From Escherichia phage Turkey3, in the sequence record PQ471515.1: a stretch of DNA of 64,000 nt; one strand, written 5' to 3'. Below, piece after piece: positions 11,263 to 12,228 of the stretch; the first letter of the stretch is position 1; each line of letters starts with the position of its first letter. A program made the position numbers and the translations under genes. The notes under the pieces were generated by a model that saw only the letters and a list, made by a program, of their open reading frames with translations, ran no database searches and was not told the DNA's origin.

Positions 11263-12228
11263 GTGAAAAAGCTTGATTTAAATGCAATTTCTGAAGAAGT
11301 ACTGGATGAGTGTTTTGCTAGTGAAGAAGTCAACGTATTAGAGGCTCTTGATTCCGTAGAAGAAGAAGAACATGACGGTCACAAGTTTGAGAAACCAAAA
11401 ACAGGTATCAGCTTAACTCGCCCTAAAGGGATAACGAATGAAATGCTCATCCAAGCAGTGCGTGATGGCATAGACGTTAAAAAGAACATTGACCTTTTGG
11501 TTCGCTACAACTATCCAATGGTAGTAAGTGTTGCACGTAAGTGTACATGTTTTATCCCATTTGAAGATAAGATTTCTTATGGTGTTGAAGGTTTAATGCG
11601 AGCAATTCATACGTTCGACACTACCAAAAATGTTAAGTTCATTACATATGCAACAACAACTGTGTACATGACAATCTATAACGAAAGTGCAGATGCTAAT
11701 TATCTAGTGCATTTCCCACGTTATATGAGTGTTAATAACATTTATGTGAAACGTTGTGTTGAAGAGTATCAAAGGAAACATGGTAAATACCCAACTCCTG
11801 AGATGGTGTCAAAAGAGACTGGTATTGAGATTCAACACGTTAAGAATTGTCTAACTTACAATAACACTTATGTAGCATTGAATATGAAAATGAGTAATGA
11901 TTCAGAAAGTACATTATCTGACATTGTTACTTCAGTTGAACCTGATTACAACTTAGGTGTAGAAACTGTCAGTACCCCACTGGTACAAAGTATTGCAGAA
12001 ATGATGAGTAACCTATCTACCAAAGACCGTGAATTGATTGAACGTGTACATGGTATTGGTTCTTATTCTGAACCAGAAACGCTACGAGAAATCATTGAGA
12101 GTGGTTTTGAAGATGAGAAGGGTAAGGTCATGACTGCTCGTTCTTCATTGCACCGTAAGTACTCTGAAGCAATGGAACGACTGCGTAAGATGGTTAAGAC
12201 AAAAGGTTATGAGTTCGAAGATTTTTAA
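11263..12228 (+). CDS. sigma-70 family RNA polymerase sigma factor (phage-encoded)
   Basis: GTG start after AGGAG; region-2-like LVRYNYPMVVSVARK and ITYATTTVYMTIY; region-4-like LSTKDRELIERVHGI and TLREIIESGF...MTARSSLHRKYSEAMERLRK. Confidence 0.65.
   Translation: MKKLDLNAISEEVLDECFASEEVNVLEALDSVEEEEHDGHKFEKPKTGISLTRPKGITNEMLIQAVRDGIDVKKNIDLLVRYNYPMVVSVARKCTCFIPFEDKISYGVEGLMRAIHTFDTTKNVKFITYATTTVYMTIYNESADANYLVHFPRYMSVNNIYVKRCVEEYQRKHGKYPTPEMVSKETGIEIQHVKNCLTYNNTYVALNMKMSNDSESTLSDIVTSVEPDYNLGVETVSTPLVQSIAEMMSNLSTKDRELIERVHGIGSYSEPETLREIIESGFEDEKGKVMTARSSLHRKYSEAMERLRKMVKTKGYEFEDF

Follow-up and report, generated by a model that had tools for sequence, protein, structure and literature searches.

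A divergent sigma70-family factor of Escherichia phage Turkey3 and a candidate promoter class that tracks its recognition helix

What does a jumbo phage that relies on a borrowed polymerase do with a sigma gene of its own, and which promoters would the product read? Phage sigma factors are the textbook route to reprogramming host RNA polymerase, and the question is raised here by the gene at 11263-12228 in a 64,000-nucleotide (nt) stretch of Escherichia phage Turkey3 (sequence record PQ471515.1), the whole of which we call the window. The phage is a RaK2/121Q-type jumbo myovirus in which no RNA polymerase gene is annotated, and it is therefore dependent on the host enzyme. A first-pass annotation had described the gene product (hereafter the window sigma) as a full-length sigma70-family factor with recognizable region 2 and region 4 signatures, and had tied it to a non-canonical promoter module upstream of an array of paralogous genes, here called MLPF after their shared N-terminal module. 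The assignment to the sigma family is right, and region 4 is far less canonical than first supposed; its most likely targets, judged by promoter sequence, are a distinct ‘middle’ class of promoters and not those of the MLPF genes.

The coding sequence (11263-12228, +) opens with a GTG and encodes 321 residues, so that the predicted open reading frame (ORF) was exact in coordinates, strand and length. A Shine-Dalgarno sequence, AGGAG (11252-11256, +), stands 6 nt 5' of the GTG and 22 nt past the stop codon of the preceding gene, and the start codon call is sound because the N-terminus MKKLDLN is kept in all homologues of the family alignment. The gene is not new, being annotated in vB_Ec-M-J, fEgEco12, 121Q, RaK2 and CBB. 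Escherichia phage vB_Ec-M-J (Asteriusvirus, 378.6 kb) matches the window at 99.8% identity across 4 kb, and its EcMJ_505, annotated as ‘RNA polymerase sigma factor’, has 99.4% amino acid identity to the window sigma; the corresponding figures are 98.8% for fEgEco12 gp519, 60% for 121Q gp167, 40% for RaK2 ORF244 and 37% for both CBB_513 and Munch gp487. These RaK2-like orthologues are of the same length class, carry the same insertion in sigma4 and show no essential difference from the window sigma, which by full-length similarity and by both family motifs (N-terminal KKLDLN..EEVLDECF, and a GF.D.KGK insertion ahead of the recognition helix) belongs to the known, annotated family of RaK2-like, RpoD-like sigmas, a subset of PHROG 351. 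In this phage, as in 121Q and CBB, the gene lies in the early region. The family is treated in a comparative survey of jumbo phages (PMC7824862), and orthologues are discussed in the papers on CBB, where the gene was placed in the predicted early region (PMC5259590), and on fEgEco12 (PMC13070987); in the literature searched we found no experimental work on it. Genome-wide counts given below are based on a near-identical genome, the vB_Ec-M-J record in six chunks joined to the window. The fixed-offset join is inexact upstream of about 10 kb in the window, so that genome coordinates at the junction are approximate, and window coordinates were read directly. No paralogue of the sigma was found elsewhere in this genome by tblastn with the window sigma as query.

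Is the product a full-length sigma? Sequence profiles gave a divided answer. Pfam Sigma70_r2 (PF04542) matched residues 79-141 with 37.2 bits against a cut-off of 24, in agreement with the region 2 signature claimed at first, and Sigma70_r3 (PF04539) matched residues 162-224 with 44.8 bits against 25.3. Neither Sigma70_r4 nor r4_2 (PF04545, PF08281) matched the window sigma even at E<=10, and the same holds for region 1.2 (PF00140); a HMMER comparison with region 2 and region 4 profiles is thus passed for the former and failed for the latter. The phage homologues (P0001-P0018) have no precomputed Pfam match to region 4 either, and the isolated sigma4 domain, searched with phmmer against 1.84 billion representatives, recovered 8 proteins at E<=1e-3, with no canonical sigma among them. 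The sole PHROG matched was 351, ‘RNA polymerase sigma factor’ (4.6e-48), and the best NCBIfam models were RpoD_Cterm, SigB, RpoS and cyanobacterial RpoD (E 1e-23 to 1e-27). The equivalog cut-offs are missed several-fold (RpoD_Cterm 96 vs 354 bits, RpoS 81.7 vs 378.7, SigB 84.4 vs 464), and on these scores, and for want of a Trp dyad and of PF00140, the window sigma falls outside groups 1 and 2. Its sigma3 domain likewise places it outside group 4, the extracytoplasmic function (ECF) sigmas, and no ECF model appeared among the top 25 NCBIfam matches.

Region 4 came into view with profile-profile and structural comparison. The hhalign alignment to E. coli RpoD (99.0%, residues 78-276) ends within region 4.2, whereas that to RpoS (99.3%, residues 79-319) reaches the end after opening a 9-residue insertion, D284-A292. 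AlphaFold2 returned three confident helical modules, at about residues 50-143, 153-198 and 240-313, in a model with a predicted template modelling score (pTM) of 0.35. Within the last module the sigma4 helices lie at 253-263, 274-279 and 293-313 (predicted local distance difference test score, pLDDT, 76-88), and a short hairpin-like element (283-289) stands between the scaffold helix of the helix-turn-helix (HTH; 274-279) and the last helix (293-313). The top Foldseek matches were full-length sigmaS and sigmaA from holoenzyme structures, with 264-278 aligned columns, and a phmmer search of the PDB matched Mycobacterium tuberculosis SigB at 1.7e-17. The C-terminal HTH is homologous to sigma4 by both profile-profile alignment and fold, and region 4 is too diverged for sequence profiles, being visible only to these two kinds of method. 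What the first-pass annotation had read as a region 4 signature was accordingly overstated, the sigma4 domain itself being recovered through hhalign to RpoS, AlphaFold2 and Foldseek; its description of the factor as full-length holds insofar as sigma2, sigma3 and sigma4 are all present, and its statement that the protein is larger than T4 gp55 is right in architecture.

By sequence and modelled fold, then, the ORF encodes a divergent sigma70-family factor composed of a region 1.2 remnant, sigma2, sigma3 and sigma4. An acidic N-terminal segment (residues 1-50; 11263-11412, +), modelled as disordered and bearing the family motif KKLDLNxIxEEVLDECF, is followed by the region 1.2 remnant (P54, T58, N59, E60) and sigma2 (residues 54-145; 11422-11697, +), identified by Pfam, alignments and AlphaFold2. 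The sigma3 domain (residues 153-200; 11719-11862, +) is assigned by Sigma70_r3, hhalign and AlphaFold2, and the divergent sigma4 domain (residues 240-313; 11980-12201, +) is the one that no Pfam region 4 model matched. A homology of the N-terminal segment to RpoS was considered after MAFFT paired KKLDLN..EVLDE with LKVHDLN..EVFDE, and was rejected (BLASTP of the N-termini, E=8.4). The best matches in sequence and structure, E. coli RpoS and RpoD and mycobacterial SigA/SigB, share the sigma2-sigma3-sigma4 order; unlike these group 1 and 2 sigmas the window sigma possesses the 9-residue insertion in the region 4.2 HTH and no Trp dyad. T4 gp55 differs in lacking the sigma3 and sigma4 domains and PHROG 351 membership that the window sigma has.

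Which DNA might such a factor read? We mapped sigma70 positions onto the window sigma through the hhalign alignments to RpoD and RpoS, taking the residues by which sigma70 reads its -10, extended -10 and -35 elements. Kept are F427 (F126), Y430 (Y129) and P453 (P152), as well as D403 and the region 2.2 core G-L-M-R-A. The Trp dyad W433/W434 is replaced by T132/T133, and across the phage clades these positions are TT, SS, TA or AS. Q437 has become M136 and T440 Y139, and in region 3.0 H455 is replaced by Y154 and E458 by V157. At the -35-reading positions R584 is kept (R293), while E585, R586, R588 and Q589 have given way to S294, S295, H297 and R298, so that four of the five classical -35-contacting positions are replaced. 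Because of these replacements the window sigma, we infer, should not share the -35 specificity of sigma70. The start of the recognition helix (residues 293-300, RSSLHRKY; 12139-12162, +) aligns with sigma70 R584-E591, and directly before it lies the insertion in the HTH turn (residues 284-292, DEKGKVMTA; 12112-12138, +), which is conserved in the family and modelled as a small hairpin or loop. In a family alignment of 17 sequences G281, D284, G287 and H297 are invariant, and the conserved C-terminal signature reads RVHG.G...ETLR.I..GF.D.KGK..(K/T)(S/A)RSS.HRKY..A..KLRK; in the metagenomic homologues (P0013-18) the recognition helix is SHSTIHRRY.

A promoter class with an unusual -35 element was found upstream of the replication genes, where an extended -10, TGnTATAAT, is combined with GAGACA or GGGACA in place of TTGACA. 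We refer to it as class 2, TG(A/G)GACA-16-TGnTA(T/C)AAT. Genome-wide, G(A/G)GACA-N16-TA(T/C)AAT occurs at 17 sites, all on the plus strand and all with a spacer of exactly 16 nt, against an expectation of 0.37 and a maximum of 2 in 60 simulations. Promoters with TTGACA by contrast have spacers of 16, 17 and 18 nt in 19, 14 and 3 cases. Class-2 sites precede, among others, ssb, primase, exonuclease and topoisomerase II genes, a gp55-like gene (site 191588) and four copies of a structured RNA described below, and no structural or MLPF gene has one upstream. One is found directly past the terminator of the sigma gene itself (12265-12293, +), with TGGGACA at 12265-12271, the 16-nt spacer, TG at 12285-12286, TACAAT at 12288-12293 and a predicted start at about 12300.

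Do the recognition helix of the sigma and the -35 box change together? The comparison drew on the sigma genes of seven phages, along with the replication blocks of 121Q, RaK2, CBB, SE_PL and XaC1. This phage and 121Q pair the box TG(A/G)GACA with the helix (T/K)(A/S)RSS(L/I)HRKY. RaK2 combines TGAAC(A/G) with TVRGTLHYKF, and CBB, Yen9-04, Kaldavass and XaC1 combine TGAAAC(G/A) with (T/N)SK(A/P)TLSRRY. In SE_PL/Munch the box is TTG(G/A)GAC, shifted upstream by 1 bp (9 of 14 extended -10 sites), and the helix SSRTSLHRCY. Munch is informative here, as its sigma is overall nearer to that of CBB than to that of this phage (45% vs 36% identity; in sigma3, 54% vs 33%), and yet its recognition helix follows this phage (6/10 identities vs 4/10 for CBB, with R293, S295 and H297 in common), as does its -35 box. 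Recognition helix and box are also alike in this phage and 121Q despite the divergence of their sigmas. Munch and SE_PL further carry an insertion 2 residues longer, GFVYTDSKGRQYS as against GFEDEKGKVMT, with a box 1 bp further from the -10; a geometric co-adaptation of the longer insertion and the shifted box is possible on this alignment. In Xanthomonas phage XaC1 it is the -10 of the class that differs, being GTGTYCTATACT, i.e. a GTGT(T/C)CTATACT region (6 sites, all on the plus strand, 0.2 expected); the CBB-type box TGAAAC(A/G) is kept despite this altered -10, and the XaC1 sigma differs at region 2.4 and 3.0 positions. Host sigma70 region 4.2 is essentially invariant among these hosts, and a clade-specific box consequently needs a phage-encoded reader, for which the window sigma would be the obvious candidate. 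The TGAAAC(G/A) box is the motif already published for CBB, whose gp55-like gene also follows a TGAAACG promoter (PMC5259590).

These observations suggest a private promoter class, in which the window sigma would read both elements, the -35 box through a sigma4 HTH with a family-specific insertion of 9-11 residues. The specificity of that HTH would have drifted together with the box among clades (TGRGACA, TGAACA, TGAAAC), a natural series of orthogonal pairs of sigma and promoter on one host core enzyme, and the class would drive the RNA of about 400 nt, which may itself have a part in the transcription switch. We put this forward tentatively, at somewhat short of even chances. Several points weigh against the window sigma as the reader of class 2. 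The covariation is correlative, comprising four helix types over five clades, and phylogeny alone yields some correlation; only Munch departs from phylogeny, and it does so by 6 vs 4 residues. The 9-residue insertion is placed only by hhalign and by an AlphaFold model whose pTM is as low as stated above. In enterobacterial phages the class-2 -10 and extended -10, TGnTATAAT, is the sigma70 consensus, and the window sigma is without the residues by which sigma70 reads it (TT for the Trp dyad, M136, Y139, Y154 and V157), so that host sigma70 could read the -10 while another phage protein reads the box.

An arrangement of this second kind, with a MotA-like protein or small HTH regulator at the box and sigma70 at the extended -10, would leave the window sigma some other job, such as replacing an inactivated sigma70 at early-type promoters or serving another promoter set. 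We think it rather unlikely, though it is the main rival. TGnTATAAT is common to the early promoters, and the residues missing from the window sigma include those for the -12 position and for TG recognition. Small HTH regulators are annotated (EcMJ_343, and CBB_511 beside the CBB sigma), and T4 offers a precedent, its MotA reading a box near -30 with an intact sigma70 -10 (PMC6024815). T4 middle promoters in fact resemble class 2 in joining a sigma70-like -10 to a non-sigma70 box upstream, and differ in that the class-2 box occupies the -35 position at a strict spacing of 16 nt, which is what a single polypeptide reading both elements would require. The CTATACT of XaC1 is moreover hard to ascribe to host sigma70, the box type tracks the sigma recognition helix even against overall relatedness, and a conserved three-domain sigma would be left without a promoter class of its own. 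An AsiA-like gene, as in the MotA/AsiA appropriation of sigma70 by T4, was not found in the genome by tblastn (best E=0.4 over 25 residues; the T4 AsiA query was validated by 100% matches to T4), a result at the tblastn level only, and MotA was not searched for.

The altered residues bear on one further alternative, namely that the window sigma binds host core but initiates poorly, acting as a competitor that shuts off host sigma70 transcription. It lacks the Trp dyad that aids -10 melting in group 1 and 2 sigmas, has region 2.2 changes relative to sigma70 (by hhalign, Q406 to S, E407 to Y and N409 to V), and is encoded by an early gene. Group 3 sigmas without a Trp dyad are nevertheless functional, all three DNA-reading modules, the recognition helix and inserted loop among them, are under strong purifying selection within clades, which would be superfluous in a competitor, and there is a promoter class whose clade-specific box matches. 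We consider this role highly improbable.

Do the MLPF genes belong to the same programme? The array (39890-60223, -) comprises 17 paralogous genes whose products share the N-terminal module MLPF(V/A)RM..YGN fused to RCC1-like, Kelch-like or other beta-propellers. Most are parted by a near-identical cassette of terminator, late promoter and Shine-Dalgarno sequence, and in 12 of the 17 TAAATA-N3-TATAAT stands some 17 nt ahead of the start codon, after a terminator hairpin. Recognition of this module by the window sigma itself is tempting for three reasons: the module has 18 matches with at most one mismatch (3.6 expected), and all but one are on the minus strand; the perfect TATAAT persists where copies have diverged, in contrast to the variable 3-nt spacer and following sequence; and with no -35 at canonical spacing host sigma70 is an unlikely reader. 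We nonetheless rate it as quite improbable, since the element proved to be general. Within 80 nt upstream, TAAATA is present at 28 of 36 structural, 12 of 17 MLPF and 1 of 28 replication or other genes, compared with 2% of random windows, and A-TAAATA lies 22-64 nt before the start codons of capsid, portal-region, sheath, tube, baseplate and fibre genes. Late promoters outside the array, too, often have a (G)TATA a few bases past TAAATA. The candidacy of TAAATA-N3-TATAAT as an element private to MLPF genes was therefore dropped: the exact 15-mer hardly occurs outside the array, but its relaxed form is the general late element.

That element resembles the T4 late promoter TATAAATA, and T4-like late promoters were already noted for CBB and GAP32 (PMC5259590). 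A gp55-type late sigma, EcMJ_325 (PHROGs 12791 and 234), is encoded at 191673-192512 of the near-identical genome, outside the window, where it adjoins SbcCD homologues as in T4; T4 and this genome thus have in common a gp55-type late sigma beside SbcCD/gp46-47 homologues together with TAAATA-type late promoters. The window sigma is itself not of the gp55 type, as it belongs to PHROG 351 rather than 234/12791 and has sigma3 and sigma4. The ‘late’ reading of the motif is supported by an exact TAAATACATTATAAT at 6511-6525 (-), because it precedes an isolated virion structural gene (5331-6488, -) in the early block. This gene (PHROG 10468) is opposed to the early block and has its own terminator (5327-5301), and its promoter adjoins a perfect 12/12 sigma70 promoter (6482-6509, +), giving two promoters of different classes back to back. 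The promoter class that covaries with the sigma occurs at 0 of the 17 MLPF genes. Read most economically, these sequences make the MLPF genes late genes like any other, probably served by the gp55-type sigma and not by the window sigma; the array resembles a set of late proteins that has diversified and whose members may be fibre- or whisker-associated. The proposed tie between the window sigma and the MLPF module is thus not supported, and the dedicated phage transcription programme that it was taken to suggest is borne out.

When would the window sigma be made? Its gene lies in an operon framed by promoters 9667 and 9988 and terminator 12233, and is of an early type driven by host sigma70. 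The nearest strong promoter upstream is the near-consensus TTGACG-17-TATAAT (9667-9695, +), and a second sigma70-type promoter, TTGACT-17-TACAAT (9988-10016, +; 10/12), precedes the genes starting at 10056, 10322 and 10743 and the sigma gene. The gene at 10743-11240 (+) encodes a weakly HslV-peptidase-like protein of 165 residues, and the operon is closed by an intrinsic terminator with an 11-bp stem and T-run (12233-12262, +). The next gene (12894) has its own sigma70-type promoter, TTGACA-17-TAGAAT (12801-12829, +). In all, 25 near-consensus sigma70 promoters (at least 11/12) were found, all on the plus strand and all between 0.3 and 36.5 kb (300-36550), where about 6 would be expected on both strands of the whole window; a loose promoter scan returned 85 sites where 94 were expected and so no excess overall, only the subset of at least 11/12 being enriched and strand-biased. 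Given this early operon behind host sigma70-type promoters, the sigma gene would be expressed soon after infection. The strongest promoters of the early block share an extended form, AGTACTGTATAAT, with 6 matches at no more than one mismatch against 0.38 expected (e.g. 14642-14654, 18953-18965 and 29819-29831), and the GTACT core of this form recurs in the MLPF terminator hairpins (GCCAGTACT..GTACTGGC).

The locus is also a mosaic with respect to 121Q. In 100-nt bins, nucleotide identity is 52-78% over 10.8-12.4 kb, a divergent patch made up of the sigma gene and the 3' half of the HslV-like gene, and rises to 98-99% at 10.0-10.2 kb and 95-100% at 12.4-12.9 kb on its flanks. At the protein level the primases of the two phages are 92% identical and the sigmas 60%. 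This pattern suggests allele replacement or fast evolution at the sigma locus. About 1.1 kb downstream of the sigma gene lies an HNH endonuclease gene (13329-14120, +), likewise mosaic against 121Q (93-99% identity in mid-gene, 58-60% at the 3' end).

Past the terminator and the class-2 promoter at 12265-12293 stands a structured non-coding RNA of about 400 nt (core 12330-12736, +), one of four paralogous copies in the genome. The others lie at ~59512-59985, 112114-112524 and 196389-196752 of vB_Ec-M-J, and each of the four occupies an ORF-free gap directly 3' of a class-2 promoter, making that at 12265-12293 the candidate promoter of the copy in the window. The RNA is detected at ~70% nucleotide identity in CBB, GAP32 and jumbo phages of Serratia, Erwinia, Yersinia and Salmonella, and a conserved 44-nt block was found at 38 places on ~17 IMG/VR contigs, nearly all of them genomes of 345-378 kb with 2-5 copies each. 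TGnTAYAAT stands at a fixed distance in 28 of the 35 copies with upstream sequence, nearly all of which also carry the box of their clade. One contig, IMGVR_UViG_3300012988_000001 (366,160 bp), has four copies of the block and TGnTAYAAT at the usual distance in 0 of the 3 with upstream sequence; it may stand for another clade whose class-2 -10 differs, as in XaC1.

The case for a structure rests on covariation, as single-sequence folding is unremarkable (z = -1.69). From a nine-copy alignment we derived a consensus with 12 helices and 64 pairs, and 95.2% of cells are paired; shuffling the columns lowers this to 77%, and sliding the partners to 33-41%. Compensatory changes were counted at 39 pairs, compared with 20.8 +/- 2.5 after shuffling (0 of 500 shuffles reach the observed value) and 7-15 with slid partners. 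Searches of the ORF-free stretch against Rfam 15 and for tRNA or tmRNA (transfer-messenger RNA) gave no meaningful match, and no description of this RNA was found in the literature searched. Between 121Q and this phage the RNA retains 95-100% identity, in contrast to the 52-78% of the adjoining sigma gene. Four non-coding RNAs supported by RNA-seq are reported for a distant relative, PA5oct (PMC7318152). The structured RNA may be the more novel object of the two.

Joining the early, class-2 and late promoters yields a cascade from host sigma70 to the window sigma (class 2) and on to the gp55-like sigma (TAAATA late), which, on promoter and gene content, we regard as slightly favoured over its negation. 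Host sigma70 would transcribe the window sigma gene early, and the product would replace sigma70 on the host core RNA polymerase. Its rewritten recognition helix (R293, S294, S295, H297 and R298), together with the preceding 9-residue insertion, would read the unusual -35 box, class-2 promoters being recognized through this altered sigma4 plus sigma2 and sigma3. The replication and recombination genes, the RNA copies and the gp55-type sigma gene would be switched on in this way, and the gp55-type sigma would then activate the TAAATA late promoters, including those of the MLPF array. The reading of the window sigma may be likened to gp28 of Bacillus phage SPO1, an early phage sigma that displaces the host primary sigma from host core and switches transcription to middle promoters. 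In SPO1 a further phage sigma serves the late genes after the middle sigma. The late step proposed here would instead fall to a T4 gp55-type factor, making the scheme an SPO1/T4 hybrid (for the SPO1 sigma cascade, PMC13401047).

For more than 10 years the sigma of the 350-kb phages in the RaK2/121Q/CBB group has stood annotated without an assigned promoter, and our analysis offers an assignment that can be tested, a strict-spacer class with a clade-specific -35 box. The proposed cascade extends to the gp55-type late sigma, and the tempting link to the MLPF genes is corrected as probably wrong. New here are the private promoter class covarying with an insertion-bearing sigma4, the hybrid SPO1/T4-like cascade and the multi-copy structured RNA, which we offer as hypotheses well supported by sequence. 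Should the covariation prove real, the clades would supply ready-made orthogonal pairs of sigma and promoter for the E. coli core polymerase, and would constitute a natural experiment in the evolution of sigma4 specificity.

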